From Candidatus Auribacterota bacterium (GTDB taxonomy: Bacteria; Auribacterota; Ancaeobacteria; Ancaeobacterales; Ancaeobacteraceae), in contig JAKLEM010000002.1 in the NCBI GenBank assembly GCA_022711655.1, forward strand, positions 1,098 through 65,097: 64,000 nucleotides of DNA, read 5' to 3'. This document shows positions 21,116 through 56,179 of the stretch, piece after piece. The stretch's first letter is position 1. Each line of letters opens with the position of its first letter. The translations under genes and the position numbers were made by a program. Below the pieces are notes generated by a model. It saw only the letters and a program-made list of their open reading frames with translations, did no database searches and was not told the origin of the DNA.

Positions 21116-22405
21116 TTAATTATCGGCGTTAACGCCACTATCTTTTGTCGCCGCCCGGCTGCGCTGGCGGCGGAATTCCTCAGCGGCGGCCGGGAACGGC
21201 GACAGTACGCGCCCGAGCACCCCCTGCACGTGCGAGATGCAGATACCGTAATTGGTGACGGCGACGCCGCGCTCCCTCGCCCGCCGGATCCGCCAGAGCA
21301 TCTCCCGGCGCGTCAGCATGCACCCTCCGCAATGGATCACCAGCTTGTACGATTCAAGATCGGCCGGGTAGTCACGGCCGGAAAAGGTGTCGATACAAAC
21401 GTCTTTCCCCAGGTACTGTCGAAGCCAGCGCGGTATCTTGACCCTGCCGATATCGTCTTCGAGCGGATGGTGGCTGCACGATTCCGCGACCAAAACCCTG
21501 TCTTTTGCCGAGAGGCGGTCGATCGCGGCGGCGCCGCGTACCATCTCGACCAGGTCGCCCTTATTGCGCGAGAACAATATCGAGAAGGTGGTGCAGCGGA
21601 CGCCGGGCGGCGTGTCGGCTACCATTTTCAGGACGACCTGCGAATCGCAGACGACCAGGTCGGGCGGCCTCTTCATATTGGCGAGCGCCGCTGCGTACTC
21701 CCGCTCCTTGACGACAAGCACCGACGCGTCGTTGTCGAGCGCGTCCCTGATCGCCTGCACCTGGGGAAGGATGAGCCGCCCCTTCGGCGCCTGCAGGTCG
21801 ATCGGCACGATCATGACGGCGGTGCCGCATGAAGGGACTAAATCGCCGAGAAGCGCCGGGGCGTTCAGGAAATCGTCGGGACATACCTTTATGAGCAGCC
21901 CCTTGAATGCGTCGACGGCATGTTCGCGGGCGCCGGCGTCGGCGCAGGAGCATGTCATACAGCCGGCGGACAGCCCGGAAACGGTTTGCATGAAATCATC
22001 GCGGGGGGGGTGCCGGTCGATCTTGTTGACGACGACGATCAGCGGCGCGGCGTGCCGGCGCGCTTCGGAGGCAACCCGCTCTTCGAACTCGCCCCAGGCC
22101 CCGGGCTCGACGACCAGCACATATATGTCGGCGCGGGGAAAGATCTTCTCGGTTTTTTCGAGACGCCTGCCGGCGAGCCCGGAAACGTCGTCGAGGCCCG
22201 CCGTATCGAGGAACAGCACCGGGCCGATCGGCAATAGCTCCATCGGCTTCTCGACGACATCGGTCGTCGTCCCGGGGACCGGCGAGGTGATCGCGATATC
22301 CTGTCCGGCGATATAATTCAGGAAGCTCGACTTCCCGACATTGGTCCTGCCGAAGATGCCGATCTGGAGGCGCAGCGATTTAGGCGTCTTTTCGTTCATG
22401 GTCAT
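21116..22405 (-). CDS. hydF: [FeFe]-hydrogenase maturation GTPase HydF
   Basis: GTPase motifs GRTNVGKSS, DTAGLDD, NKID. C-terminal cluster motif CSHH...HCGGC. The start (22405 or 22399) overlaps the end of the aspA-like gene. Confidence 0.85.
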   Translation of the reverse strand: MTMNEKTPKSLRLQIGIFGRTNVGKSSFLNYIAGQDIAITSPVPGTTTDVVEKPMELLPIGPVLFLDTAGLDDVSGLAGRRLEKTEKIFPRADIYVLVVEPGAWGEFEERVASEARRHAAPLIVVVNKIDRHPPRDDFMQTVSGLSAGCMTCSCADAGAREHAVDAFKGLLIKVCPDDFLNAPALLGDLVPSCGTAVMIVPIDLQAPKGRLILPQVQAIRDALDNDASVLVVKEREYAAALANMKRPPDLVVCDSQVVLKMVADTPPGVRCTTFSILFSRNKGDLVEMVRGAAAIDRLSAKDRVLVAESCSHHPLEDDIGRVKIPRWLRQYLGKDVCIDTFSGRDYPADLESYKLVIHCGGCMLTRREMLWRIRRARERGVAVTNYGICISHVQGVLGRVLSPFPAAAEEFRRQRSRAATKDSGVNADN

Positions 22406-23774
22406 ACCCCAGAGAGGTGAGGCGTTCCGGCGAAAGGAGATCGTCGATCGCGGCGCGCCCCAGCGCGCGGGCAAGGAACGCCCTGACGTCTGTCTCGCCC
22501 GATGCGCCGAATTCTTTCACCAGCGCCGCGGCGCGGTCGTATCCGACAGCCGGCAGCAGCGCGGTCACGATGGAAACGCTCCGGTCTACGGTCTCCCGGC
22601 ATCGCTCCTCGCCGTGGCGGATACTACGGACATGACCCGCCAGGATCTCGTCGGCCCGCCGCAGGAGCCCGAGCGACTCGAGGAGCGCATGCGCCGCCAG
22701 CGGGAGGAACTCGCTTATCTGAAGCGTCCCGCGGGACACGGCGTCGGCCACCAGCGCGTCGTTGGCCACCGCTTTCATCCCCGCCTGGATCGCCATCTCG
22801 CATATCACCGGGTTGACCTTGCCCGGCATGATCGACGAGCCCGCCTGCGCGGCGGGGAGGGCGATCTCGCCCGAGAGGTTCATCAGGCGCAGGTCGCCCG
22901 CGATCTTGATCAGGTTTACCGCGTGCGCCTTGAGGATCGCCGAGGCCTCGACGAAGGGGTCGGCGTTCGCGGTCTCGTCGACCAGGTTGTCGGCGCGCGC
23001 GAGCCCGAGACCGGTGATCTCACGCAGCCGTTCGACTGCCAGAAAGATGAACTGCCGCGGCGCCGTCAGGCCGGTGCCGACCGCGGTCCCGCCGAGGTTC
23101 ACCACGCGGAGCCGCTCTTCGCACTTGAAGGTCCGCCATCGGTCGCGGCCGAGCGCTCCCGCGAAACCGGAAAACACCGCGCCGAGCGTCATCGGGACCG
23201 CTTCCTGGAGCTCGGTCTTCCCTACCATGACGACGCGGGCAAACTCCTTCTCTTTTTGCTGGAAGGCCCCCTGAAGATCCTCTGCGGCTTTGCTCAGGGA
23301 ACGGAACCCCCGGATTGCGGCGATCTTCAGCGCCGTGGGATAGACATCGTTGGTCGACTGGTGGCGGTTGACGTCCTCGATCGGGTGGACCAGCGCGTAA
23401 TCGCCTTTTGTTCCGCCGAGCAGTTCGATGGCGCGGTTGGCGATCACCTCGTTGACGTTCATGTTGGTCGAGGTCCCGGCGCCGCCCTGCAGCGCGTCGA
23501 GGGGGAACTGATCCGAGAATCCGCCCGCGGCGATCTCGTCGCACGCGCGGAGCATAGCCGATTCTTTATCGGCGCCGAGGAAGCCGAGCTCGCGGTTCGC
23601 CCGGGCGCAGGCCTTTTTCACCGCCGCCAGCGCCTGTATCAGCGCCGGGGCGACGCGCAGGCCGCTCACGGAAAAGTTCTCGAGGGCGCGGACGGTATGG
23701 ATGCCGTAGAAGGCGTCCGGCGGGACGCGCCGCTCGCCCAGCAGGTCTCGCTCGATCCTGTTATTCGAATTCAT
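22380..23774 (-). CDS. Aspartate ammonia-lyase / class II fumarase family protein embedded in the hyd maturation genes
   Basis: 464 aa. Family signature GSSIMPGKVNPV. Confidence 0.8.
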   Translation of the reverse strand: MNSNNRIERDLLGERRVPPDAFYGIHTVRALENFSVSGLRVAPALIQALAAVKKACARANRELGFLGADKESAMLRACDEIAAGGFSDQFPLDALQGGAGTSTNMNVNEVIANRAIELLGGTKGDYALVHPIEDVNRHQSTNDVYPTALKIAAIRGFRSLSKAAEDLQGAFQQKEKEFARVVMVGKTELQEAVPMTLGAVFSGFAGALGRDRWRTFKCEERLRVVNLGGTAVGTGLTAPRQFIFLAVERLREITGLGLARADNLVDETANADPFVEASAILKAHAVNLIKIAGDLRLMNLSGEIALPAAQAGSSIMPGKVNPVICEMAIQAGMKAVANDALVADAVSRGTLQISEFLPLAAHALLESLGLLRRADEILAGHVRSIRHGEERCRETVDRSVSIVTALLPAVGYDRAAALVKEFGASGETDVRAFLARALGRAAIDDLLSPERLTSLGYDHERKDA

Positions 23775-23849: not shown

Positions 23850-24107
23850 CTATTTCATCGCGATCTCGACAAGCTTGGTCTTCACGCCCTTGATGAGGTT
23901 CAGCTTGCGGGCCATCTCCTTGATCTTCGCGGGCGCGCCGACGAGCTCGAGGATCAGGAGGCCGTGGTTGGAGCACTTGTCGAGGACGCCGTCGTGTATG
24001 CCGAGGCGCGTCTTGATGAGGCAGCCCCAGAACGTCAGGATCTGCTGGACCTTCGGCGCCTCTTCTTTTCTCTTGTCCACCATCACGATCAGGATCGTCT
24101 TCTTCAT
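23850..24107 (-). CDS. TM1266-type small putative iron-only hydrogenase system regulator (ACT/NikR-C-like)
   Basis: Trimmed to MKKTILIVMVDKRKEEAPKVQQILTFWGCLIKTRLGIHDG... ATGA overlap with the hydE stop (24104..24107). Confidence 0.7.
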   Translation of the reverse strand: MKKTILIVMVDKRKEEAPKVQQILTFWGCLIKTRLGIHDGVLDKCSNHGLLILELVGAPAKIKEMARKLNLIKGVKTKLVEIAMK

Positions 24108-25216
24108 CTGCCGCCCTCCTTTTGGTTTTTTTTCAACGAATCGCCTTTGCCGTAATCGACGCACCTGCCGATCGACTTCGCCATCCCCTCGATGCAGAAG
24201 GCGCACTGGCCGACCGGCTCCTCCACGCAGCGCTTGTCCGGGTAGATCTCGTACATCTTGCGGTACGGCGAGGGCGTGAAGTTCGGCATCATCACGTTCG
24301 CACCGGCTTTGAGGCCGTCTATCCGGTGGTCTTTTCCCATGCTCCCCAGCGCCGTGGTCGCGGGCAGATGCGCGTTCTTCGTCACGATCCGCGTCAGCGC
24401 GACCGCCTTGAGGACCATGTCGACCGAGCCCCGCGCCTGACCGGCGAGCGCGGTCTGCCCGTGCGGGATGAACGGGCCGATCCCTATCATATCAAAATCG
24501 TTCTCTTTGAAGAACAGGATATCGCGCGCGATCGCCAGGGGGGTCTGCCCGGGGAGCCCGATCAGGTCGCCCGAACCGGTCTGGTAGCCGAGCTCTTTCA
24601 GGTCGCGCAGGCACCTGAGCCTGTTACCGAAGCTCATGCCGGGGTGGAGCGCCGCGTAGAGCTTTTCGTCGGTGGTCTCGATCTTGAGGAGATAGCGGTC
24701 GGCCCCCGCCTCGCGCCACAACGCGTACGCGTCGCGGCTCTTTTCGCCGACCGAAAGGGTGACCGAGACGTCGAACCGGGACTTGACGTCGCGGACGACC
24801 TCGGCGAACAAGGCGGGGTCGAGCTTCGACGACTCGCCGGACTGCAGGACGACCGTTTTGAGGTTGTGAGACACGACCCGTCCAACGCTCTCGATAATTT
24901 CTTCTCGCGACAGCGTGAAACGCGGCAGCCTCGCGTTGTTCCTGTTCAGGCCGCAGTAGTGGCAGGTCCCGTCGCACTCGTTGGAGAACTCGACGATCCC
25001 CCGCAGGAGGATCCCCTCGCCCATCTGCTCCTGACGGACGCGGTCGGCGAAGGCGTAGATCTTTTCGAGGTCGCTCTTATCGGTTACGGAGAGCAGCGCG
25101 ACGAGATCCTCGAGGGACGGGCGATCCGCCGACGAGACCCGCGCAAGGGTCTGTTCGAACTCCATCTGGTTGCTTATTTCCTTCATCGATACACCGCCTA
25201 ATGACCAATGATCCAA
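24104..25216 (-). CDS. hydE: [FeFe]-hydrogenase maturase HydE (radical SAM)
   Basis: CDGTCHYCGL radical-SAM motif, BioB-like, in hyd gene context. The start may be the internal MKEISN.. at 25186. Confidence 0.85.
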   Translation of the reverse strand: MDHWSLGGVSMKEISNQMEFEQTLARVSSADRPSLEDLVALLSVTDKSDLEKIYAFADRVRQEQMGEGILLRGIVEFSNECDGTCHYCGLNRNNARLPRFTLSREEIIESVGRVVSHNLKTVVLQSGESSKLDPALFAEVVRDVKSRFDVSVTLSVGEKSRDAYALWREAGADRYLLKIETTDEKLYAALHPGMSFGNRLRCLRDLKELGYQTGSGDLIGLPGQTPLAIARDILFFKENDFDMIGIGPFIPHGQTALAGQARGSVDMVLKAVALTRIVTKNAHLPATTALGSMGKDHRIDGLKAGANVMMPNFTPSPYRKMYEIYPDKRCVEEPVGQCAFCIEGMAKSIGRCVDYGKGDSLKKNQKEGGR

Positions 25217-25274: not shown

Positions 25275-26672
25275 TCACACATACGTGTCTCGGGCGCCCT
25301 TGTCGACCGCGTCGAGATAGCGCTTGAGCTCGGCCTTGCCTTCGTCGTCGAGCGCAGCCTTCAGCTTCTCGATCATCCGGTAGCCGTCCTCTTTGACCTT
25401 CTTGGACGCGAAATCGTCGAGGTACTCTTTCAGGGTGATCACCGCGTTGAGCGCGCACTTTTCCTTGATCAGCCCCGGCTTCGCCAGGTCCATGAAATGC
25501 CCGCCCGTCCGCTCCTTGCGGTAGCAGGCCGCGCAGAAGCTGGGGATAAAGCCATGCGCGATGATCGACGCGATCACCTCATCAAGCGAACGGTGATCGT
25601 TCAACGAGAACTGCGTCCCGGGCTGACACGTCTCGCGCGCATCGGCATATCCGCCCGGCGACGTGCTCGATGCCGCACTGACCTGCGACACACCCAGGGT
25701 GAATAGCTCGTCGCGCATCTGCGCGGTCTCGCGGGTCGACAGGATGATGCCCGTGTACGGGACCGCGAGGCGCAACACCGCAACGACCTTCTTGAAATCG
25801 CTGTCGGACACCCGGTGCGGGATGTTCCTGCTCAAGGCGGACCCGTCGGCCGGCTCGATCCGCGGCACCGATATCGTATGCGGGCCGACGCCGAAGGTCC
25901 TCTCCAGATGCTCGATGTGCATCATAAGGGCCAGCGTCTCGAACCGGAAATCGTACAACCCGTAGAGGACCCCGACACCGACATCGTCGATGCCGGCCTT
26001 GAACGCGCGGTCGATCGCATCGATACGGTTGTCCGGATCGCTCTTGGGACCGCGCACGTGCACCTTCCGGTAGGTCTCCTCGTGGTAGGTTTCCTGGAAA
26101 AGCTGGAACGTCCCGATCCCCGCCGTTTTCAAGACCTTGAACTCGTCGACAGAGAGCGGCGCGCAGTTGATGTTCACCCGCCGGATCCGGTGCGGACCGA
26201 CCTGCACCGAATACACCGCGTCGATCGCTTCCCGGTAATAATCGACCGGGGTCCTTCCCGACGGGGCCGACTCACCCGCGACCACCAACACCCGCTTGTG
26301 CCCGCGCTGCAAGAGCGACGCGACCTCCGTCTTGATCTCGTCTGCGGTCAGCGCCTTGCGCGTTAACTGGCGGTTCCCCGCCTGGAACGCGCAGTAGAGG
26401 CAGCTGTTCGAGCAGAAGTTGCTGATATACAGCGGCGCGAACAGGACCACCCGCTTCCCGTAGATCGTGTCCTTCACATAGGCCGCCGCGTCGAATATCT
26501 TGCGGACGGACGCAGGGTCGTCCGCGCACAGCAGCAACGCCGTTTCCTCGAGCGTCAGCCGCTTGAGGGCGCGGCTCTTCGCAAGGATCGCGTCGATATC
26601 GCCGGCGGTCGCCTTACCGGCGACCGCCAGGAGATTGCCGATCCGTTTTTCGTCGATATGTATCATAAGCAC
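25275..26672 (-). CDS. hydG: [FeFe]-hydrogenase maturase HydG (radical SAM tyrosine lyase)
   Basis: FCSNSCLYCAF radical-SAM motif, ThiH-like body, C-terminal Cys motif SFCAACYRK..(x)..KCALN. Confidence 0.9.
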   Translation of the reverse strand: MLMIHIDEKRIGNLLAVAGKATAGDIDAILAKSRALKRLTLEETALLLCADDPASVRKIFDAAAYVKDTIYGKRVVLFAPLYISNFCSNSCLYCAFQAGNRQLTRKALTADEIKTEVASLLQRGHKRVLVVAGESAPSGRTPVDYYREAIDAVYSVQVGPHRIRRVNINCAPLSVDEFKVLKTAGIGTFQLFQETYHEETYRKVHVRGPKSDPDNRIDAIDRAFKAGIDDVGVGVLYGLYDFRFETLALMMHIEHLERTFGVGPHTISVPRIEPADGSALSRNIPHRVSDSDFKKVVAVLRLAVPYTGIILSTRETAQMRDELFTLGVSQVSAASSTSPGGYADARETCQPGTQFSLNDHRSLDEVIASIIAHGFIPSFCAACYRKERTGGHFMDLAKPGLIKEKCALNAVITLKEYLDDFASKKVKEDGYRMIEKLKAALDDEGKAELKRYLDAVDKGARDTYV

Positions 26673-26722
26673 GCACCGCTTTCTCTCTGCAGCGGGTGAC
26701 CGGGCAGCGGTTTTTCCGCACC

Positions 26723-27226
26723 CTACCCCTGTTTCCGGTAATTATTCAATATCTCCGTCACCTTCTTCGGCGTCAGCGTCCCGTAGATCTTGTCGTTGAT
26801 CATCATCACCGGCGCGATCCCGCACGCGCCGAGACACCGGGCCTCCTGCAGGGTGAAGAGCTTGTCGGGCGTGGTCTCGCCGACCTTGATCTTGAGCTCG
26901 TCCTTGATCTTCGACATGATCTCGTCGGCACCTTTGACGTAACAGGCGGTGCCGAGGCAGACCGATATCACGTACTTCCCCTTGGGCGTCAGGCAGAAAT
27001 AATGGTAGAAGGTCGCAACGCCCCAGATGTGCGCCGTGGGGATCTTCATCGTCACCGCGACCTCGTCCATCGCCTCGACGCTCAGGTAGCCGTAGAGCTC
27101 CTGCGCCTTGTGGAGGATCGCGATCAGCGACGCCTCGTCGTTGTACTGCGTCTTCTTCTGCTCGGCCATGAACTTCCTGAGCTCGGCCATCTTCGGATCA
27201 GCTGTCTTTACGACTGTGTCAGCCAT
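26723..27226 (-). CDS. NuoE-like [2Fe-2S] subunit of the NAD(P)-linked [FeFe]-hydrogenase (HydC/HndA)
   Basis: CLGTACYVKG and CLGACGIAPV thioredoxin-like ferredoxin motifs. Confidence 0.85.
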   Translation of the reverse strand: MADTVVKTADPKMAELRKFMAEQKKTQYNDEASLIAILHKAQELYGYLSVEAMDEVAVTMKIPTAHIWGVATFYHYFCLTPKGKYVISVCLGTACYVKGADEIMSKIKDELKIKVGETTPDKLFTLQEARCLGACGIAPVMMINDKIYGTLTPKKVTEILNNYRKQG

Positions 27227-27238
27227 GACGTGTCTCCT

Positions 27239-29041
27239 CTATTTATTCGCCGGTTCGGCTGGTTTCTGCTGTTTCAGGCTCTCCGGTATGATCCCCACCG
27301 GGAAGTGCTGCTTGTAGTGGGTATGGAGCAGCTTGTGCGAGGCCGGGCTCCCGGGCCTGCCAAGGAACTCCTTGTAGAGCCGCTGGATGTCCGGGTTCTC
27401 GTGGCTGCGCCGGATCGTCTTGTTCCGGTCGAGCGTATAGAGCGCCTCGGCCCGCTTCATCAAACACTCCTCGTCCAGCGGGATCGAGTTGCTGTTCGCG
27501 TACGGCTGGCCGCCGCCGCCGACGCACCCGCCGGGACAACCCATGATCTCGATGAAGTGATACCGGTTCGGGTCCTTGCGGGCGATGTCGAGCAGCTCGG
27601 CCGCGTTGCCGAGGCCGTGGGCGACCGCCACGCGGATCTCCTTGCCGTCCATGACGACCTTCCCTTCCTTGATCCCCTGCAGGCCTCTCACCGCGCCGAT
27701 CTCGATGTCGAGGAGCGTCTCGCCGGTCGCCAGCTCGTAGGCGGTCCTGATCGCAGCCTCCATCACGCCGCCGGTCGTCCCGAAGATCGTCCCCGCGCCC
27801 GACGACAGGCCGAGCGGATGGTCGAACTCCTCTCCCTTGATCGCGAGGAAGTCGATCCCCGCAGACTTGATCATCCAGGCAAGCTCGCGCGTGGTGATCA
27901 CCAGGTCGGTGGCGCGCATCCCGTTCACCTCGAGCTCGGGCCGTGCGGCCTCGTACTTCTTCGCGGTGCAGCACATGAAGGCGACGCTCAGGATCTCCTT
28001 CGGGTCGCGCTTGATCTTGTCCGCGAAGTAGGTCTTCACCATCGCGCTCTGCATCGACATCGGCGACTTGCAGGTCGAGATATGGTCGATCAGGTCCGGA
28101 TGGTACTGCTCGAGGCACTTCATCCAGGCCGACGAGCACGACGTGATCATCGGCAGCTTCCCCTTCCCCTGCAGCCGCTCGAGGAACTCGTTCGCCTCCT
28201 CCATGATCGTGAGGTCGGCCGAGAACTGCGTGTCGAACACGTAGTCGAACCCGAGGCGGCGGATCGCCGCGGCGAGCTGTTTCTCCATGGTGCGGCCCGG
28301 CTCGATGTTGAACGCCTCGCCGATCGCCGCGCGCACCGACGGGGCGCACTGCGCGACCTTGAGGATCGACTTGTCGTTGAGCTTCTTGAACAGCTCCTGC
28401 GTGTAGTCCTTCTCGAGGAACGCCGCGGTCGGGCAGACGTTGATGCACTGGCCGCACGCGGTGCAGCTGCTGTCCCTGAACGGCATGTTGTAGGCAGGCA
28501 TTACGACCGTCTTGAAACCGCGGTGCGCGTAGCCGAGCACCGACGTCTTCTGGATCTCAGAGCACATACGGACGCAGCGGCCGCAGAGGATGCACTTGTT
28601 CGGGTCCCTGATCACGGCGACGCCCGACACGTCCTTCTCGTAATGCTTCATCTCGCCCTCGAAATGGCGCTTGCGGATCCCCATCGAGTAGGCGAGGCGC
28701 TGGAGCTCGCAGTTGCTGTCGCGCTCGCAGGTGTGGCAGTCCATCGGGTGGTTGTCGAGGATCAGCTCGACGATGTCGCGCCGCGCGCTCCGGAGCTCGG
28801 GCGTGTTGGTCCTGATCTTCATCCCGTCCGCGACGGGGTAGGCGCAGGAGGCGATAAAGTTGCGCGCCCCTTCCAGCTCGACGATGCAGACGCGGCACGC
28901 CCCCTCGATCGAGAGCTTGGGATGGTAGCAGAGCCGCGGGATGCGGAACCCGACCTTGTCTGCCGCCTGCATGACCGTCTGCCCGGCCGCGACCTGGTAG
29001 GGCTTGTCGTCTATGTATATCGTTATCATCTTCTTATCCAT
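27239..29041 (-). CDS. hydA: [FeFe]-hydrogenase catalytic subunit (HydA/HndD, CpI-like M3 architecture) with atypical H-cluster motifs
   Basis: N-terminal plant-type 2Fe-2S, a His-ligated cluster region (HPMDCHTCERDSNCELQ) and 2x CxxCxxCxxxCP. H-domain motifs are TSCSSAW (28124..28144), FMCCTAKKYE (27950..27979) and EIMGCPGGCVGGGGQP. Confidence 0.9.
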   Translation of the reverse strand: MDKKMITIYIDDKPYQVAAGQTVMQAADKVGFRIPRLCYHPKLSIEGACRVCIVELEGARNFIASCAYPVADGMKIRTNTPELRSARRDIVELILDNHPMDCHTCERDSNCELQRLAYSMGIRKRHFEGEMKHYEKDVSGVAVIRDPNKCILCGRCVRMCSEIQKTSVLGYAHRGFKTVVMPAYNMPFRDSSCTACGQCINVCPTAAFLEKDYTQELFKKLNDKSILKVAQCAPSVRAAIGEAFNIEPGRTMEKQLAAAIRRLGFDYVFDTQFSADLTIMEEANEFLERLQGKGKLPMITSCSSAWMKCLEQYHPDLIDHISTCKSPMSMQSAMVKTYFADKIKRDPKEILSVAFMCCTAKKYEAARPELEVNGMRATDLVITTRELAWMIKSAGIDFLAIKGEEFDHPLGLSSGAGTIFGTTGGVMEAAIRTAYELATGETLLDIEIGAVRGLQGIKEGKVVMDGKEIRVAVAHGLGNAAELLDIARKDPNRYHFIEIMGCPGGCVGGGGQPYANSNSIPLDEECLMKRAEALYTLDRNKTIRRSHENPDIQRLYKEFLGRPGSPASHKLLHTHYKQHFPVGIIPESLKQQKPAEPANK

Positions 29042-29094
29042 GACATCTCCTTTTTCGCGCCGCCCGGCGGGACCTCCCGCCGGCCGCGGCGGCG

Positions 29095-30888
29095 TTATTT
29101 CTTCGTGATCGCCGAGAATTTACAGGTCTTGAAGCACATGCCGCACTTGATGCATTTCGCCTGGTCGATGACGTGCACCGTCTTGGGCGAGCCCGCGATC
29201 GCCGCCGTCGGGCAGACGCGCTTGCAGGCGCCGCAGCCGACGCACTTGGCGTTGATCTCGTAGGTCACGAGCCCCTCGCAGACGCCCGCGCGGCATTTCT
29301 TCGCGGCGATATGTTCTTCGTACTCGACCCGGAAGTTCTTGATGGTGCTCAGCACCGGGTTCGGCGCCGACTGCCCGAGGCCGCACAGCGACGACTTCTT
29401 GATCATGTTGCCGAGCCGCTCGAGCTTCTCGATGTCGCCGTCGACGCCTTTCCCCTCGGTGATGCGGGTAAGGATCTCGAGCATCCGCTTGGTCCCCTCG
29501 CGGCAGGGCGTGCACTTGCCGCACGACTCGTCCTGCGTGAACTGGAGGAAGAACTTCGCCATGTTGACCATGCAGGAATCCTCGTCGATCACGATCATCC
29601 CGCCCGAGCCCATGATCGAACCGGCCGCGGCCAGCGAGTCGTAATCGATCTGCGTGTCGAGATACTTCTCGGGGAGACAGCCGCCCGACGGGCCGCCGGT
29701 CTGGACCGCCTTGAACTTCTTGTCGTTGGGTATGCCGCCGCCGATATCGTAGATGATCTGGCGGAGCGTCGTCCCCATCGGGACCTCGACCAGCCCCGTG
29801 TTCTTGATCTTGCCGGCAAGCGCGAAGACTTTGGTCCCCTTGCTCTTCTCGGTTCCGATCGAGCTGAACCAGTCGGCGCCGTCAAGGATGATCACCGGGA
29901 TATTCGCCCAGGTCTCGACGTTGTTGATCACCGTCGGCTTGCCGAAGAGCCCCGACTGCGCCGGGAACGGCGGACGGGGGCGCGGCATGCCGCGCGAGCC
30001 CTCGATCGAGTGGATCAGCGCCGTCTCCTCGCCGCAGACGAACGCGCCCGCGCCGAGCCGGATCTCGATGTCGAACGAGAAGCCGGACCCGAGGATGTTG
30101 TCGCCGAGGAACCCTTCCCGCTTCGCGTCGGCGAGCGCCTTCTCGAGGCGCTTCACCGCGAGCGGGTATTCCGCCCTGATATAGACAAAGCCTTCTTTCG
30201 CGCCGATCGCGTAGGCGCCGATGATCATCCCCTCGATCACCGTGTGCGGGTCGCCCTCGATCATGCTGCGGTCCATAAACGCGCCCGGGTCTCCTTCGTC
30301 GGCGTTGCAGATCAGGTACTTCACCGGATCCTTCTCGCGCGCGGTAAACTCCCACTTCAGGCCGGTCGGGAACCCCGCGCCGCCGCGGCCGCGCAGCCCC
30401 GCCTTTTTCACCTCTGCGGCGACCTCCGCCGGCTTCATGCTCGTGAGGACCTTCGCCAGCGCCTCGTACCCGCGGAGCGCGAGATACTCGTCGACGTTCT
30501 CCGGGTCCATGATGCCGCAGTTGCGCAGCGCGATACGCATCTGCTTGCCGAAAAAGTTGACGTCGCCGAACACCCGGTAGAACCGGTTGTAGAGGTGGTC
30601 CTCTTCGATCAGCAGCCGCGCCACCGGCTTCTTCTTCAGAAGATGTTTCTCGACGATCTCGGGGATATCCTTCTCGGTAACGTTACCGTAGATGACGTAC
30701 CCGGGGTTGACGATCATGATCAGCCCCTTGGCGCACATCCCGAGACAGCCGGAGGTAATGACACGGACCTTGTCTGCCAGCCCGGCCTTCTCCAGCTCGA
30801 CCTTGATGACATCCTTCACCTGCTTGGACCGCTTCTGCATGCACGACGGCCCGTCGCACAATGTAATGACATATTTCGATACCGGCAT
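29095..30888 (-). CDS. NuoF-like flavoprotein subunit of the hydrogenase (HydB/HndC)
   Basis: Trimmed to ATG 30888 (AAGGAAAGGGTGG RBS). The upstream residues HWSLVI come from the CCAATG repeat. N-terminal Trx-like 2Fe-2S, GRGGAGFPTGLKW, SCGKCTPCREG, and two C-terminal ferredoxin-type Cys motifs. Confidence 0.9.
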   Translation of the reverse strand: MPVSKYVITLCDGPSCMQKRSKQVKDVIKVELEKAGLADKVRVITSGCLGMCAKGLIMIVNPGYVIYGNVTEKDIPEIVEKHLLKKKPVARLLIEEDHLYNRFYRVFGDVNFFGKQMRIALRNCGIMDPENVDEYLALRGYEALAKVLTSMKPAEVAAEVKKAGLRGRGGAGFPTGLKWEFTAREKDPVKYLICNADEGDPGAFMDRSMIEGDPHTVIEGMIIGAYAIGAKEGFVYIRAEYPLAVKRLEKALADAKREGFLGDNILGSGFSFDIEIRLGAGAFVCGEETALIHSIEGSRGMPRPRPPFPAQSGLFGKPTVINNVETWANIPVIILDGADWFSSIGTEKSKGTKVFALAGKIKNTGLVEVPMGTTLRQIIYDIGGGIPNDKKFKAVQTGGPSGGCLPEKYLDTQIDYDSLAAAGSIMGSGGMIVIDEDSCMVNMAKFFLQFTQDESCGKCTPCREGTKRMLEILTRITEGKGVDGDIEKLERLGNMIKKSSLCGLGQSAPNPVLSTIKNFRVEYEEHIAAKKCRAGVCEGLVTYEINAKCVGCGACKRVCPTAAIAGSPKTVHVIDQAKCIKCGMCFKTCKFSAITKK

Positions 30889-30912
30889 ATTCCACCCTTT
30901 CCTTGAAAAACT

Positions 30913-31008
30913 AATGACCAATGACCAATGTTCCAATGACCGCAAAAACGTCTATGATACACACCGTGTTGGGATCTGGTTCATTGGACATTGGTCATTC
31001 TCCAATGA
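30913..31008. repeat. CCAATG/CATTGG heptad palindromic repeat, copy B (hndB-hydB intergenic)
   Basis: Left arm AATGACCAATGACCAATGTTCCAATGACC (30913..30941). Right arm GGTTCATTGGACATTGGTCATT (30978..30999), plus one extra CCAATG unit. Confidence 0.8.
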
Positions 31009-31042: not shown

Positions 31043-31399
31043 CTAATTGATCACCCATTCCTTGATCACCTCTCCGTTCTTCAGATGGCGCTCGATGATC
31101 TTCGCGGCCATCTCCGGCGTGACCTTCCCGTACTTCACGGGGATCTTGCCCTCCTCGACGACCTCGACGGTCGGCTCGAGGTTGCAGCGCCCCGCGCACC
31201 CCTTCTGGCTGAGATAGACGTCGGTCAACCCCTGCTTCGCCGCGTTCTGGAAGACCTCCATCACCTCTTTGGAACCCGCCGCGATCTCGCAGGTCGCCAT
31301 GCCGACGTAGACCCGCTTCGTCGACAGGTACCCCTTGCCAACGATCCGGTTGATCGCCTCGGCTCGTTTCTTTTTGACGATGTCTAACGGTGTAACCAC
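31043..31399 (-). CDS. Small thioredoxin-like [2Fe-2S] ferredoxin (HndB-like)
   Basis: GTG start. ..GMATCEIAAGSKEV.. and ..QKGCAGRCNLEPTVEVV.. motifs. Confidence 0.75.
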   Translation of the reverse strand: MVTPLDIVKKKRAEAINRIVGKGYLSTKRVYVGMATCEIAAGSKEVMEVFQNAAKQGLTDVYLSQKGCAGRCNLEPTVEVVEEGKIPVKYGKVTPEMAAKIIERHLKNGEVIKEWVIN

Positions 31400-31447: not shown

Positions 31448-33298
31448 TTAAACGTACGTTTCCCCTTGCGGGATTTCAAAAATAAACGCGTTTCCTTTTT
31501 CGCGCGGCTCGACCCGTATCGCGCCGCCGTGTTTCTCGACGACCTCCTTGGTAATAAAGAGACCCAGCCCCGTCCCATGGACCTTTTCGCCTTTCGGCTG
31601 CAGCCGCGAGAACTTCCTGAAAAGCTTCTCCTTGTCTTCAGCCGTAATGACCCGCCCGTCGTTGTACACCTCGACCCGGACCTTCGACCGATCGATCGAG
31701 GCGTTCACCGCGATCCTGCCGCCGGCCGCCCCGTACTTCACCGCGTTGCCGAGGAGGTTGTTGAGGACGATCTGCATCAGTCCGACGTCCCCCTTGCAGA
31801 CGATGCCCGGCGGAACCCCGTTCTCGACCGTCATCTCCTTTTCGCTCGCCTGCTTGGCGAATGCGTCGACGGAGAGGTCGACGATGTCCTCTTTCAGGCG
31901 GAACTCCGCGCGCTTGAGGGTCATCTCGCCCTTCTCCATCCTGCTCAGGTTGAGAAAATTCTTCACCGTCGAGTCGAAATAGTCGAGGTTGCGCGCGATC
32001 GAATCGAGCGCCTTGCGCTGCTTGAAGTTGATCATCCCGAGGTAGCCGTCACGCACCGAGTAGGCGTTGAGGATCGTCGAGGCGAGGATCCCCTTGAGCT
32101 CGTGCGCGACGAACCCGACGAGGTCGAGGTAGGCCGTGTTGAGCGCGGCCAGCTTCTCGTTGGTCTCGTGAAGGCTCGCCTCCCGATGCATCAGCTTTTC
32201 GGCCATCTCGTTGAATGAGGCGGCCAGCTCGTTGAGCTCGCTGATCGACGAATCGGTCGCCATCTTCTGCGTGAGGTCCCCGGCCGACATCACCCGGGTC
32301 GCCCCCAGCATCGCCTTCACCGGACCGGTCACACGCCCCGCGAGGAGATAGGCGATGAACGAGGCGGCGATCACTGCGGCTGCCACGATCGCGAACAGCA
32401 CCCACAGGATGTTCCGCTTAAGGTCGACGAACGGCTTCTCGAGCCTTCCGACATACAGTATCCCTATGATCTTCCCCTCGATATCCCTGATCGGTTCGTA
32501 CGCCGTCAGGTACCAGTCTGTCACGACGAACGCCCGGTCGACCCAGCTCTTCCCTTCGGCCACCACCTTCTTGTAGACCGTATCGGAGACGCGCGTGCCC
32601 ACCGCGCGGTTCCCTTCGCTGTCGAGGACGTTGGTCGCGATGCGGACGTCGTCGAGGAATATCGTGACCGTGCCGATCGGCTTGTTCGCGTACATCCTGT
32701 TCTCGAAAACAAGGTTGTGGATCCGGTCGATCAGCTCGAAATCCCGGTTCAGGATCCGGCCCCCGTACAGCGCCGCGGCGACCTTGCCGTCCTGCCCCGT
32801 CAACGGCGCCGCATACTCGATCGCGAGGGCGCTGTCAACCGTCGTACGGCCGGTCGGCCCGGCTTTGGGCGTTTGCCGCACGTTGATCAGGCACCTGTCC
32901 CTGACCTCAGGCCCCATATTCGCCAGCTCCTCCGGCCCGACGATGCGCGTCCCTCCGGCGGCGCGCCCCGCCAGCGCCTCGCGGGCGATATCGCTCTTCA
33001 GCGCGCCGGCGCCGGCAACGTCGACGACATAGAGATAATCGAGGCCGATCTTTTTCCTGAGCTCGTCGATGCGGCGCGGGTCGACGGTGAGGAGGCCGAA
33101 CGCCTTCCGTATCGTCGCGATCTCGCCGTCATACAGGATCCGGGCGACCTTGAGGTTGTTCTTCACCTCTTCCTGCGCGCGGTCGATGATGTTCTTGTTC
33201 ACCACATGGATACGGTGGATGGCGATGATCACGCCCAAAAGGGCGATCACCACGAAGAACGACAGCAGGAGCTGCGTCTGGAGCGACCGGGCCTTCAT
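31448..33298 (-). CDS. Sensor histidine kinase (two TM helices, ~270-aa periplasmic sensor, HAMP, HisKA, HATPase)
   Basis: H-box VAHELKGILAS. N/G boxes LLGNAVKYG and GTGLGLFITKEVVEKHGG. ATGA overlap with the rex stop. Confidence 0.85.
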   Translation of the reverse strand: MKARSLQTQLLLSFFVVIALLGVIIAIHRIHVVNKNIIDRAQEEVKNNLKVARILYDGEIATIRKAFGLLTVDPRRIDELRKKIGLDYLYVVDVAGAGALKSDIAREALAGRAAGGTRIVGPEELANMGPEVRDRCLINVRQTPKAGPTGRTTVDSALAIEYAAPLTGQDGKVAAALYGGRILNRDFELIDRIHNLVFENRMYANKPIGTVTIFLDDVRIATNVLDSEGNRAVGTRVSDTVYKKVVAEGKSWVDRAFVVTDWYLTAYEPIRDIEGKIIGILYVGRLEKPFVDLKRNILWVLFAIVAAAVIAASFIAYLLAGRVTGPVKAMLGATRVMSAGDLTQKMATDSSISELNELAASFNEMAEKLMHREASLHETNEKLAALNTAYLDLVGFVAHELKGILASTILNAYSVRDGYLGMINFKQRKALDSIARNLDYFDSTVKNFLNLSRMEKGEMTLKRAEFRLKEDIVDLSVDAFAKQASEKEMTVENGVPPGIVCKGDVGLMQIVLNNLLGNAVKYGAAGGRIAVNASIDRSKVRVEVYNDGRVITAEDKEKLFRKFSRLQPKGEKVHGTGLGLFITKEVVEKHGGAIRVEPREKGNAFIFEIPQGETYV

Positions 33299-33930
33299 GG
33301 CTTCCTCCCCGTCTTCTGCATCGCGTTCACATAATAGATGACGTTCTCGAGCTCGTATTCGACGTTGATGTTATTGATGATGCAGTCCTCCGCACCCTTG
33401 AGCCTGATCGGCGCGAAATTCAAGACACCCTTGATCCCGGCGGAGAGCATCATGTCGTGCACCTGCTGCGCCGCGATATCAGGGACGGCGATGATGCCGG
33501 TCTTGATGCCGTTGGCCTTGACGTATTCCTTCAGCTCTTCGAGCGGCAGGACCGGCGGCGCCGCGGCGCGGTTGACCTTCGCCGGGTCGATATCGAAGCC
33601 AGCGGCGATCCTGATCCCCTCTTTTTCGAACCCCTTGTAGCGGAGCAGGGCCGAGGCGATATGGCCGCAGCCGACGATCACCACCTTGTGGACCTCGTCT
33701 TTGCCGAGGATGCTATTGAGCTTTTCCAGGAGCTGGTCGATCTGGTAGCCCCCTTTTTTATTGCCGGATATCCCGAACAGCGAGAAATCCTTGCGGACCT
33801 GCGCGGGGGTCACCCCGACGGCGTCGCCGAGATTGTCCGAAAAGACCTTCACGAACCCCAGCGACCTGAACCTGTTCAGCGCGTTGCGGTACCGCGAAAG
33901 CCGTATGATGCACTGCTTATTGATATTCAT
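33295..33930 (-). CDS. rex: Redox-sensing transcriptional repressor Rex
   Basis: IIRLSRYRNALNRFRSLGFVKVFSDNLG..VRKDFSLFG.. wHTH plus a Rossmann motif VVIVGCGHIASALL. Confidence 0.9.
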   Translation of the reverse strand: MNINKQCIIRLSRYRNALNRFRSLGFVKVFSDNLGDAVGVTPAQVRKDFSLFGISGNKKGGYQIDQLLEKLNSILGKDEVHKVVIVGCGHIASALLRYKGFEKEGIRIAAGFDIDPAKVNRAAAPPVLPLEELKEYVKANGIKTGIIAVPDIAAQQVHDMMLSAGIKGVLNFAPIRLKGAEDCIINNINVEYELENVIYYVNAMQKTGRKP

Positions 33931-34095: not shown

Positions 34096-36003
34096 ATGAT
34101 CGCTGACGCAAAGAAAACTTCCGCACATCCCGACACCAATCGTAGAGGCTCTCTCATTCTTTGCCTGATCCTGGTCGCGCTGGCGGCGATATGCGTATAC
34201 GCCAACACCGTCGGCAGCGATTTTGTCTGGGATGATAACGGCCTCGTCGTCGACAACCCCCTGATCAGGAGCTGGTCTTCCATTCCCCGGTTCTTTTGCC
34301 AAGGGATCAACAGCCGGCCGGACGAAGGATCGTATTTTCATCGCCCGCTGCAGATGATCTCCTATACTCTTGATTATTCCCTGTGGGGTCTGCGCCCGGC
34401 GGGATACCATATCACCAGCATCCTGCTCCACGCCGCTGCGGCTGCCGCTGTAGCCTGGCTCGCCTATCTTATTACCGGAGCGCTCGCTCTCGCCGGCGCG
34501 GCCGGGCTGTTATTTGCCGTGCACCCGGTGCATACGGAAGCCGTCGCCTACATATCGGGAAGGGCCGATCTCCTGTCGGCGCTCTTCATGCTCCTCGGTT
34601 TTGTCTCGTATGTGCGCTGGATCCGCTCTCGCACCGCATCACCCTTGTTTCTCACGTTGTCATGCTTCGCTCTCGCCCTGCTATCGAAAGAAAGCGCGCT
34701 GATCCTTCCTCTCCTCCTCTTACTCTATAACGCCTCATTCAAGGAGAGATGCCGCTGGGGCGGCCTTTCGGCGATCGCCGGGATCGCCCTGGCATACATT
34801 ATTGTAAGGGCAGCTCTTCTGCCCGAACTGATCCCGCCGATGGAAAAGGCGGCCGGGGCGCCGGGAATCGTTGAGAGAGCGCCCGGTTTCTTCGCCGCCG
34901 TTGCGACCTATCTCAAGCTGCTTGTCGTCCCCGCCGGCCTTCACATGGAACACGGCAAGAAGGTTTTCAACTCGTTCCACCCGCTCGTACTGTGCGGCCT
35001 CTCCGCGACCGTCGCATCGCTTGCCGGCGCATGGGCGGCCAGAAAACGCGCCCCGCTTGTTTCCTTCGCTATCGCCTGGTTCTTCATCGGGCTGCTGCCC
35101 GTCTCCAACCTGTTCCGCCTGAACGCCTATCTCGCAGAACACTGGCTCTATGTTCCATCGATAGGTTTCTTTCTCGTCATCGCCGCCTTCTTCAACGGGA
35201 CCTTCGAGAAAGCCGCGCACAAAAAAGCCGTCGTCGCCGCGTTCTGCTGCCTGCTTGTCTGTTTTTCCTGCCTGACGGTCCTGCAGAACAGATACTGGAA
35301 AGATCCGATCGCCTTGTTCACGAGGACATTGCTGTACTCGCCCGGCAACCACCATGTCTACAACAACCTCGGCATCGCGTACGGAAAGAAAGGGCTGGAG
35401 CAGGATGCCGAGGCGATGTTCCGCAAGGCGATCGAAGCCAACCCGCGATCTTTCCTGGGCTATTATAATCTAGCGAATGCCTACGCCGCCAAAAACCGGC
35501 ATGACGATGCGATCGCTCTGTTCGAGAGGGCCCTAGAGATCAACCCGAGGTATCTCAGGGCATACGTCAACCTCGGCAACAGCCTGATCGTACTCGGCCG
35601 GCACGATCGGGCGATCACCGCATACAGCCGCGCCATCGAGATCGATCCGGCGTACATTAATGCCTACAACAACCTGGGGAACGCCTGGAGCGCGATAGGC
35701 AATAACGAGAACGCCGTGAAAACCTACAAGCGAGGCTTAGATATTAATCCCCGCGATCCCGTTTTGTATTATAATATCGGCGAAAGCTACGCGGCGCTCG
35801 GCGACCGCGAAAATGCGGTCAGCTCGTATATGCAGTCCATCAGGCTTGCGCCTCGTTTCGCGGCCCCGTATTACCGGATGGCCGAACACATGTTCGAGGG
35901 GAAACGGTTTTCGGATGCCCGCGAATATCTCAGGAAAGCCGAGGGCCTGGGCTATGCGCCCGACCCTCGGTTCGCGGAAAAGTTAAAAAACGCAGGCGAA
36001 TAA
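34096..36003 (+). CDS. Polytopic membrane protein with C-terminal TPR repeats (TMTC/DUF1736-like GT-C glycosyltransferase candidate), paralog of 9865..11790
   Basis: SDFVWDDNGLVVDNPLIRSW motif after TM1, about 10 TM helices, then 6-7 TPR units (..YNNLGIAYGKKGLEQDAEAMFRKAIEANP..). Confidence 0.75.
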   Translation: MIADAKKTSAHPDTNRRGSLILCLILVALAAICVYANTVGSDFVWDDNGLVVDNPLIRSWSSIPRFFCQGINSRPDEGSYFHRPLQMISYTLDYSLWGLRPAGYHITSILLHAAAAAAVAWLAYLITGALALAGAAGLLFAVHPVHTEAVAYISGRADLLSALFMLLGFVSYVRWIRSRTASPLFLTLSCFALALLSKESALILPLLLLLYNASFKERCRWGGLSAIAGIALAYIIVRAALLPELIPPMEKAAGAPGIVERAPGFFAAVATYLKLLVVPAGLHMEHGKKVFNSFHPLVLCGLSATVASLAGAWAARKRAPLVSFAIAWFFIGLLPVSNLFRLNAYLAEHWLYVPSIGFFLVIAAFFNGTFEKAAHKKAVVAAFCCLLVCFSCLTVLQNRYWKDPIALFTRTLLYSPGNHHVYNNLGIAYGKKGLEQDAEAMFRKAIEANPRSFLGYYNLANAYAAKNRHDDAIALFERALEINPRYLRAYVNLGNSLIVLGRHDRAITAYSRAIEIDPAYINAYNNLGNAWSAIGNNENAVKTYKRGLDINPRDPVLYYNIGESYAALGDRENAVSSYMQSIRLAPRFAAPYYRMAEHMFEGKRFSDAREYLRKAEGLGYAPDPRFAEKLKNAGE

Positions 36004-55940: not shown

Positions 55941-56179
55941 ATGACCGTCCGCTCCCGTAAATCCGCCCTGATTGTAACACAACCGCCGCTCGCTGTCGCA
56001 GGGAAATTTGCGCCCCGAAATGGCGGATAACAGTCCGTCTGCGGCGTTGCAGGCCACCGCTCTCTTGTGCGGCGTACTTCCCAGTACGCCTCCGCGGTCG
56101 CTGGCCTGCGCCTTGCAGCCGAACTGTTCTTCGCCATTTCGTATTTCAAACAGGTTCTATATGAATTATTATCTTATTC

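Follow-up and report, generated by a model that had tools for sequence, protein, structure and literature searches.

A HydABC-type [FeFe] hydrogenase of a candidate Auribacterota genome with serine at a cubane-ligand position and an additional cysteine in motif 2

The window analysed here, a stretch of 64,000 nucleotides from contig JAKLEM010000002.1 of Candidatus Auribacterota bacterium (GenBank assembly GCA_022711655.1), encodes on its minus strand HydA, the catalytic subunit of an [FeFe] hydrogenase, together with its partner subunits and maturases. An earlier reading of this DNA (the original prediction) had drawn attention to two unusual motifs of HydA, TSCSSAW and MCCTAKK, and had proposed that a proton-relay cysteine was replaced by serine. 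Both motifs are read directly from the minus-strand open reading frame (ORF), and the third motif is canonical, as had also been noted. Alignment to known hydrogenases places the serine on a ligand of the [4Fe-4S]H cubane and leaves the relay cysteine in place, and the extra cysteine of motif 2 is shared by a coherent clade of related enzymes. The features of the gene are given below, with equivalent residues of the Clostridium pasteurianum enzyme CpI.

27239..29041, minus strand: hydA, catalytic [FeFe]-hydrogenase subunit, 600 amino acids (aa), ATG start
28124..28144, minus strand: L1 motif, T300-S301-C302-S303-S304-A305-W306 (ITSCSSAW), codons ACG TCG TGC TCG TCG GCC TGG
28076..28198, minus strand: proton-pathway residues E282 (CpI E279), E285 (E282), R289 (R286) and S322 (S319), from the alignment to CpI
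27950..27976, minus strand: L2 motif, M356-C357-C358-T-A-K361-K-Y-E (FMCCTAKKYE), from sequence and alignment
27503..27550, minus strand: L3 motif, E498..P513, EIMGCPGGCVGGGGQP, from sequence and alignment

Pfam analysis of HydA revealed, from the N-terminus, a 2Fe-2S domain (Fer2_4), NADH-G_4Fe-4S_3, an F-domain with two [4Fe-4S] clusters, the H-domain and a small-subunit-like C-terminus, which is the architecture of a complete M3-type [FeFe] hydrogenase (matches to Fe_hyd_lg_C at 8.8e-89, Fe_hyd_SSU, Fer2_4 and NADH-G_4Fe-4S_3). The protein scored 826.6 bits against the NCBIfam family NF040763, named "NADH-dependent [FeFe] hydrogenase, group A6" (cutoff 765), and 167.6 bits against TIGR04105 (group B1; cutoff 450). 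The PDB matches were HydA1 of Thermoanaerobacter kivui (8a6t_A, E=1.9e-175) and HydA1 of Acetobacterium woodii (7q4v_A, E=9.6e-163), and Foldseek comparison of the AlphaFold2 (AF2) model with 8a6t_A and 7q4w_A gave template-modelling (TM) scores of 0.78-0.81; the per-residue confidence (pLDDT) of this model was mostly 85-95 in the H-domain and below 50 for F-domain residues 129-210, as expected without cofactors. Pfam found no PAS domain on HydA, the CCC triad that marks motif 1 of group B2 is absent from its TSCSSAW sequence, and a six-frame motif scan detected no second hydrogenase in the window. An identical protein is present in a public protein collection (P0001), and the long plus-strand ORFs, such as 26696..29263 (+), are shadow ORFs in a window with a G+C content of 57-64%. 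With its H-domain, its M3-type F-domain, a family score above the cutoff and cluster ligands at C506 (equivalent to the bridging Cys, C503, of CpI), C502 and C358, with Ser303 in the fourth position, HydA has what characterizes group A6 (HydABC-type), even if the strict TSCCP and MPC strings are not matched. The enzyme belongs to the HydABC group already described, which NCBI's family name calls A6.

The HMMER alignments of HydA to CpI and to the T. kivui and A. woodii HydA proteins were gap-free across L1, with window numbering equal to CpI plus 3. This motif reads F-T297-S298-C299-C300-P301-G302-W303 in CpI, T-S-C298-C299-P-S-W in T. kivui HydA1 and T-S-C300-S301-P-G-W in A. woodii HydA1. 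Because the alignment to CpI is gap-free, C302 falls on C299 and S303 on C300, followed by S304 on P301 and A305 on G302. The cluster of CpI is held by C300, C355, C499 and C503, with C299 serving as the relay (PMC10147833; bioRxiv 10.1101/2023.06.23.541094). By this alignment S303 substitutes the [4Fe-4S]H cubane ligand C300 and not the proton-relay cysteine; the original prediction, which had equated the second Cys of TSCCP with C299, contained a numbering error, C299 being the first Cys, retained here as C302. The proton pathway of CpI proceeds from C299 via a water molecule to E279, S319, E282 and R286 (PMC10147833; bioRxiv 10.1101/2023.06.23.541094). Its equivalents in HydA, namely C302, E282, S322, E285 and R289, aligned without gaps and are conserved in the clade described below, in which the relay position is Cys in all 229 representatives; E282, E285 and R289 were invariant and S322 nearly so (alignment A1). 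HydA thus has, as judged from the alignment, a canonical relay of C302 followed by E282, S322, E285 and R289, and since all of the pathway equivalents are present, nothing speaks for the rerouted proton pathway that had been suggested.

Serine at the C300 position is a known natural variant, and HydA is ordinary on that point. In the HydABC complex of A. woodii, Ser301 replaces the A1-cluster cysteine (Cys299 in T. kivui), while the infrared (IR) signature of the H-cluster is unaffected and the activity is similar to that of the T. kivui enzyme (Katsyv et al., 2023; PMC10021017). Kertess et al. (2017; PMC5855289) reported Ser at the equivalent position in ~20% of sequences, and for this reason found it surprising that the engineered C115S variant of CrHydA1, which corresponds to C300S, lost the cubane and all activity. 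In our alignment of 129 sequences, made up of 123 of the 50%-identity representatives and six members of the query's own clade, this position was Cys in 97 and Ser in 30 (23%). The combination of TSCSPGW and MPC was present in 66 of the 80 closest loci of GTDB species genomes, mostly from Lachnospiraceae, Oscillospiraceae, Ruminococcus and other Clostridia. A literature search for TSCSP yielded only a Melainabacteria genome paper, in which TSCSPGW is recorded for confurcating hydrogenases (PMC3787301), and searches for TSCSS and TSCSA yielded no hydrogenase paper.

In L2, C358 is the equivalent of the ligand C355 of CpI, M356 of M353 and K361 of K358, and the supernumerary C357, which adjoins the ligand as originally predicted, occupies the position of P354. 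In L3, C502 and C506 correspond to C499 and C503, M500 to M497 and G501 to A498. CpI P354 is listed among the residues lining the H-cluster cavity (PMC10147833), and in the AF2 model C302-S303 and C357-C358 each form a two-residue link between the end of a strand and the N-terminus of a helix. Cys at position 354 was found in none of the 97 Cys300 representatives (91 of which have Pro) and was also absent from 23 representatives with Ser300 and MPC; in the 50%-identity alignment it was confined to the Ser lineage. All 120 best homologues of HydA, at 76-83% identity, possess TSCS[SA]AW together with MCCTAKKYE, and the Cys at position 357 in 120/120 of them is independent of the criterion by which the clade was selected. 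These homologues and the identical public protein rule out a sequencing error at the Ser codon, which the original prediction had named as a possible refutation. A literature search for the motif (MCCTAKK, MCCxxK) found no hydrogenase paper that mentions a Cys of the C357 type. The original prediction had also allowed that both departures might prove common and already characterised: this holds for the serine, which is frequent and compatible with normal activity in A. woodii (PMC10021017), while MCC is common but no characterisation of it was found. Two further cysteines were considered as compensating residues and rejected: C321 (STCKSP), as Cys is the commonest residue there in all groups, and C309 (MKC), as only 106 of 229 clade members have Cys.

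To describe the MCC clade, we used 229 cluster representatives, down to 53% pairwise identity, that had been selected for C357 and C358. In a neighbour-joining (NJ) tree from which the motif columns had been removed, they formed a single cluster among HydABC-type sequences, with TSCSP relatives in basal positions, including the TSCSPGW plus MPC forms P0305, P0307 and P0308. The tree, computed quickly from Kimura distances and lacking support values, was used only for the monophyly of the clade and the nesting of exceptions, both of which were cross-checked by BLAST identities. Position S303 (CpI C300) is Ser in 227 and Cys in 2 of the 229 sequences, and S304 (P301) is Ser in 182, Ala in 44 and Pro in 3. 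All 229 have Cys at C302 (C299), Met at M328 (Q325) and Gly at G501 (A498), as well as, by selection, Cys at C357 and C358 (P354 and C355); overall, 117 of 580 columns were invariant, including all catalytic residues. The equivalent of CpI F296 is mostly Ile. The sequences, which NCBI likewise names "NADH-dependent [FeFe] hydrogenase, group A6", originate from Omnitrophota, Planctomycetota (Phycisphaerales, Sedimentisphaerales and Anaerohalosphaeraceae), Auribacterota, Armatimonadota, Margulisiibacteriota, Endomicrobiia and Dependentiae. The motif pair is also present in two named strains, Anaerobaca lacustris and Anaerohalosphaeraceae bacterium U12dextr, of which only A. lacustris is a confirmed axenic isolate.

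The exceptions bear on whether the two sites are coupled. A group from Armatimonadota (P0327) combines TSCSP[GA]W with MCC; P0294 and P0295, which include a metagenome-assembled genome (MAG) of Dependentiae, combine TSCCPTW with MCC and are 67% identical to MCC members vs. 54% to the best non-MCC sequence; and L013 from Cloacimonadota combines TSCSSAW with MPC and is 72% identical to MCC members vs. 55% to non-MCC sequences. Strict co-variation of S303 and C357 was therefore rejected, as all four combinations of states exist, and this indicates that each site changes state independently of the other. The canonical state was probably followed first by C300S and then by P354C accompanied by P301S/A, with occasional single reversions.

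Some relatives showed unusual gene organizations. In P0122 and P0271-P0304 (746-784 aa), from Armatimonadota, Margulisiibacteriota and related MAGs, HydA carries a NuoE-like HydC domain (PF01257) as a C-terminal fusion; the HydA portion is mostly of the MCC type, and the order of the fusion matches the clade's unusual placement of hydC downstream of hydA. P0121 (4122 aa), a single predicted protein from the search for representatives, has seven tandem copies of the H-domain, each with FTSCCA[SG]W, LMPCTVKK and EIMMC..GC, and could be either a giant multi-hydrogenase polypeptide or an artefact of assembly or gene calling. In a MAG labelled "bacterium" (L012:7775-11246, JAQUNG010000012.1), an MCC-type HydB-HydA-HydC set is followed directly by a second hydrogenase set comprising HydC' (163 aa), HydB' (386 aa, devoid of the terminal Fe-S domains and with GGASG, not GGPSG) and HydA' with TSCSPGW and MPC; from these sequences, a bifurcating and an NADH-only enzyme are putatively encoded side by side.

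The genes that surround hydA in the window are as follows.

33295..33930, minus strand: rex, redox-sensing (NADH/NAD+) repressor, heading the locus (NF003996, 240.7 bits, cutoff 138)
31448..33298, minus strand: membrane sensor histidine kinase with Cache, HAMP, HisKA and HATPase domains (Pfam; syntenic in related loci)
31043..31399, minus strand: small thioredoxin-like [2Fe-2S] ferredoxin-like gene upstream of hydB (fdxn_Clost 1e-08, below cutoff)
29095..30945, minus strand: hydB, NuoF-like flavoprotein subunit (Pfam; 7q4v_B, E=4.3e-255)
26723..27226, minus strand: hydC, NuoE-like thioredoxin-like [2Fe-2S] subunit, downstream of hydA (2Fe-2S_thioredx 1.2e-53; NCBIfam NuoE/HoxE)
25275..26672, minus strand: hydG, H-cluster radical-SAM maturase (TIGR03955, 511 bits, cutoff 312)
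24104..25216, minus strand: hydE, H-cluster radical-SAM maturase (TIGR03956, 326.9 bits, cutoff 254.6)
23850..24206, minus strand: ACT-like putative regulator gene of the CPF_0552/TM1266 family, between hydE and hydF
22380..23774, minus strand: aspartate-ammonia-lyase-like (AspA-like) gene (NF008909, 548 bits, cutoff 510)
21116..22474, minus strand: hydF, H-cluster maturation GTPase (TIGR03918, 505.9 bits, cutoff 325.6; HydF_dimer, HydF_tetramer)

Read along the minus strand, the order is rex, histidine kinase, ferredoxin-like gene, hydB, hydA, hydC, hydG, hydE, ACT-like gene, AspA-like gene and hydF, and the series Rex-HK-Fdx-HydB-HydA-HydC-(HydGEF), with HK for histidine kinase and Fdx for the ferredoxin-like protein, recurs in MCC-clade loci of Omnitrophota, Planctomycetota and Auribacterota. 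The synteny of a NuoF-like HydB and a NuoE-like HydC was observed in at least 13 related loci. In the MCC-clade loci hydC holds the same position as in the window; in the Clostridia TSCSPGW loci it lies upstream. The small ferredoxin-like gene, 79-83% identical across related loci, is in what we take to be the position of A. woodii HydD. An AspA-like gene between hydE and hydF was also seen in one other locus (L016). HydB probably begins at the ATG near position 30888. It comprises a 2Fe-2S domain at the N-terminus, a flavin mononucleotide (FMN)/NADH domain, an SLBB domain with GGPSG (residue 417), NADH_4Fe-4S and a C-terminal pair of [4Fe-4S] clusters, and its best PDB match was A. woodii HydB (7q4v_B). 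According to Losey et al. (PMC7311640), GGPSG occurs in the beta subunits of bifurcating enzymes but is missing from those that use NADH only; the window HydB has this motif together with the N-terminal 2Fe-2S and the C-terminal 2x[4Fe-4S] domains that accompany it in bifurcating subunits, and does not resemble the beta subunits of non-bifurcating, NADH-only enzymes, which are without GGPSG and the extra Fe-S domains. The NuoE/NuoF-type neighbours recognized in the original prediction accordingly represent HydC and HydB of an enzyme that probably bifurcates, as evidenced by Pfam, NCBIfam, the PDB match and GGPSG.

From the observed residue identities, their conservation, the family membership and the operon context, we infer that the window HydA is a catalytically competent, A. 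woodii-type HydABC subunit with a canonical relay, with Ser303 retained at the cubane and with C357 in the second sphere, a reading that we hold with good confidence. The complex, partnered by NuoE- and NuoF-type subunits, would most likely use flavin-based electron bifurcation or confurcation to link H2 with NAD(H) and ferredoxin, and would be made alongside its own HydE, HydF and HydG maturases, probably under the control of Rex. Ser303, the counterpart of Ser301 of A. woodii, would still bind or hydrogen-bond the cubane, and Cys357 would be a cavity-lining second-sphere residue that tunes the potential or stability of the cluster, not a compulsory replacement ligand. This role of C357 is favoured because position 303 is strictly Ser or Cys and because the two sites revert independently. 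A changed catalytic bias, which had also been suggested, could still accompany it. Several points weigh against this reading. The loss of function in CrHydA1 C115S implies that ligation by Ser is context dependent (PMC5855289), and C357 might be required in the clade as compensation. A498G, beside the ligand C499, and Q325M are invariant in the 229 sequences and would fit a remodelled ligation; the constancy of C357 and C358 in that set follows from its selection and is not independent evidence; the searchable literature holds no characterised enzyme of the MCC clade; and bifurcation is suggested solely by features of the HydB sequence.

An exchange of ligands, by which Cys357 gives the fourth thiolate of the cubane in tandem with C358 and Ser303 is only a hydrogen-bonding neighbour, is possible but in our view unlikely; tandem-Cys ligation has a precedent in cluster N2 of complex I. 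Such an exchange would account for the lack of Cys354 on any of the 97 Cys300 backgrounds, for the Cys at 357 throughout the 120 best homologues, and for A498G and Q325M being fixed alongside it. In addition, P354 lines the CpI cavity (PMC10147833), the loop placement in the AF2 model would put residue 357 in a situation like that of the cavity-facing C302, and a serine as damaging as that of C115S in CrHydA1 would press for compensation (PMC5855289). However, position 303 is never Ala, Gly or Thr in the 229 sequences, which is unexpected if its ligand role had been lost; A. woodii-type enzymes function with Ser and MPC (PMC10021017); and the nesting within the clade of L013 (TSCSSAW with MPC) and of P0294/P0295 (TSCCP with MCC) demonstrates that the two sites are not obligatorily coupled. 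The proposal that the MCC clade has rebuilt its cubane coordination, with Cys357 either as a ligand in tandem with Cys358 or as a reactive thiol in the H-cluster pocket, and with Ser303, Gly501 and Met328 completing the new spheres, is put forward as a tentative one. A shift in register, with C302 as the cubane ligand and Ser303 turned towards the azadithiolate (adt) bridge, is conceivable but contradicted by the normal Fourier-transform infrared (FTIR) states reported for the A. woodii enzyme (PMC10021017). That the serine replaces the relay Cys, leaving HydA with a rerouted proton pathway or as a low-activity H2 sensor, is very improbable. The motif is unusual, exchange of the true relay for Ser (C169S, C299S) impairs the enzymes concerned (PMC11376134), and a histidine kinase and Rex are encoded upstream; yet the first Cys of TSCCP is the relay and is kept in 229/229 sequences, the equivalents of E279, E282, R286 and S319 are all conserved, and A. 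woodii HydA1 is fully active with the same Ser (PMC10021017). The sensory enzymes of group C contain PAS/PAC domains (PMC11376134). HydA is devoid of these, has a standard F-domain and no fusion to signalling domains, and its gene lies between hydB and hydC in a HydABC operon that also includes hydEFG, so that the sensor role originally proposed can be set aside. To our knowledge, HydS enzymes are without the canonical relay and pathway, both of which HydA keeps. Finally, a sequencing or assembly error, or a decaying pseudogene, has nothing in its favour beyond the deviation from the consensus motif and is scarcely credible: the 600-aa ORF, its partners and its maturases are intact, the motif pair is common to the 229 cluster representatives from many phyla and to two named strains, and the 117 invariant columns of 580 include every catalytic residue.

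A native Ser in TSC-S, harmless in A. woodii, was already known. Beyond it there is a sizeable and coherent subclade of bifurcating-type hydrogenases with the signature of MCC, M328 and G501, apparently uncharacterised in the searchable literature, in which C300S, P354C and A498G are fixed changes to the neighbourhoods of three of the four cubane ligands. In CrHydA1, altering ligands by engineering displaces both the potential of the cluster and the catalytic bias (PMC5855289); by extension, the MCC clade would show how the [4Fe-4S]H subcluster can be tuned in nature. In the searches made here, the MCC type was the main [FeFe] hydrogenase of Omnitrophota and of anaerobic Planctomycetota, groups that abound as fermenters in anoxic sediments. 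If the coordination were indeed rebuilt, the hydrogenases of these and of neighbouring candidate phyla would be retuned by nature in their [4Fe-4S]H potential, catalytic bias or response to oxygen. Anaerobaca lacustris offers an axenic source of a clade enzyme (WP_349244097.1) for biochemistry.

Elsewhere in the window, a 2787-aa ORF (1036-9399, minus strand), for which four passenger-associated transport (PATR) repeats were the only Pfam match, probably encodes a giant surface or adhesin-like protein. A type II/IV secretion ATPase (53838-56057, minus strand; T2SSE and MshEN) has a response-regulator receiver domain fused to its C-terminus. Two paralogues of ~640 aa (9865-11790 and 34096-36003, both plus strand) matched Pfam only through C-terminal TPR arrays, the N-terminal half of the latter being hydrophobic-looking in translation; a phosphodiesterase-family gene (11787-13862, plus strand) and a sulfatase gene (13856-15691, minus strand) are located nearby. 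A 779-aa ORF (48164-50503, minus strand) had no Pfam match at E<=1e-6.

Among known systems, HydA1 of the A. woodii HydABC(D) complex (7Q4V/7Q4W/8A5E), at ~45% identity over the model alignment, shares with the window enzyme its domain architecture, relay Cys, proton pathway, MxCTAKKYE and L3 motifs, as well as the Ser at the cubane-ligand position (TSCSPGW, Ser301), and its locus likewise contains the HydB partner (E=4e-255), a NuoE-like HydC and a small 2Fe-2S protein. The A. woodii enzyme differs in keeping P302 after the Ser and in keeping MPC, where the window enzyme has S304/A305, C357, M328 (Q325M) and G501 (A498G); in addition, hydC is downstream of hydA in the window and upstream in the Clostridia TSCSPGW loci. 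T. kivui HydA1 (8A6T) was the best overall match in sequence and structure, with the same F-domain and H-domain, but both this protein and Thermotoga maritima HydA (7P5H), which belong to canonical bifurcating HydABC enzymes, have TSCCP and MPC in their canonical form with all-Cys ligation. CpI, the prototype of group A1, has the same fold, and near the motifs all of its residues of the proton pathway and the H-cluster pocket can be aligned gap-free with those of the window enzyme; it is, however, monomeric and ferredoxin-dependent, and the S, S, C, M and G of the window enzyme correspond in it to C300, P301, P354, Q325 and A498.

Group B2 enzymes (CpIII and Megasphaera elsdenii II; TSCCCP) also possess a naturally occurring extra Cys adjacent to residues of the H-cluster, and in them it changes the inactivation behaviour (bioRxiv 10.1101/2023.06.23.541094). 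That Cys lies in motif 1 of a group B enzyme with no Ser ligand, whereas the window enzyme is without a CCC triad. The non-bifurcating HydAB(C) enzymes of Syntrophus aciditrophicus and Syntrophomonas wolfei resemble the window enzyme in their NuoF-type partner and NADH-linked H2 metabolism, but their beta subunits are without GGPSG (PMC7311640), which the window HydB has along with both terminal Fe-S domains. The short HydB' with GGASG (386 aa), encoded beside the second HydA in L012, is like the Syntrophus and Syntrophomonas kind.

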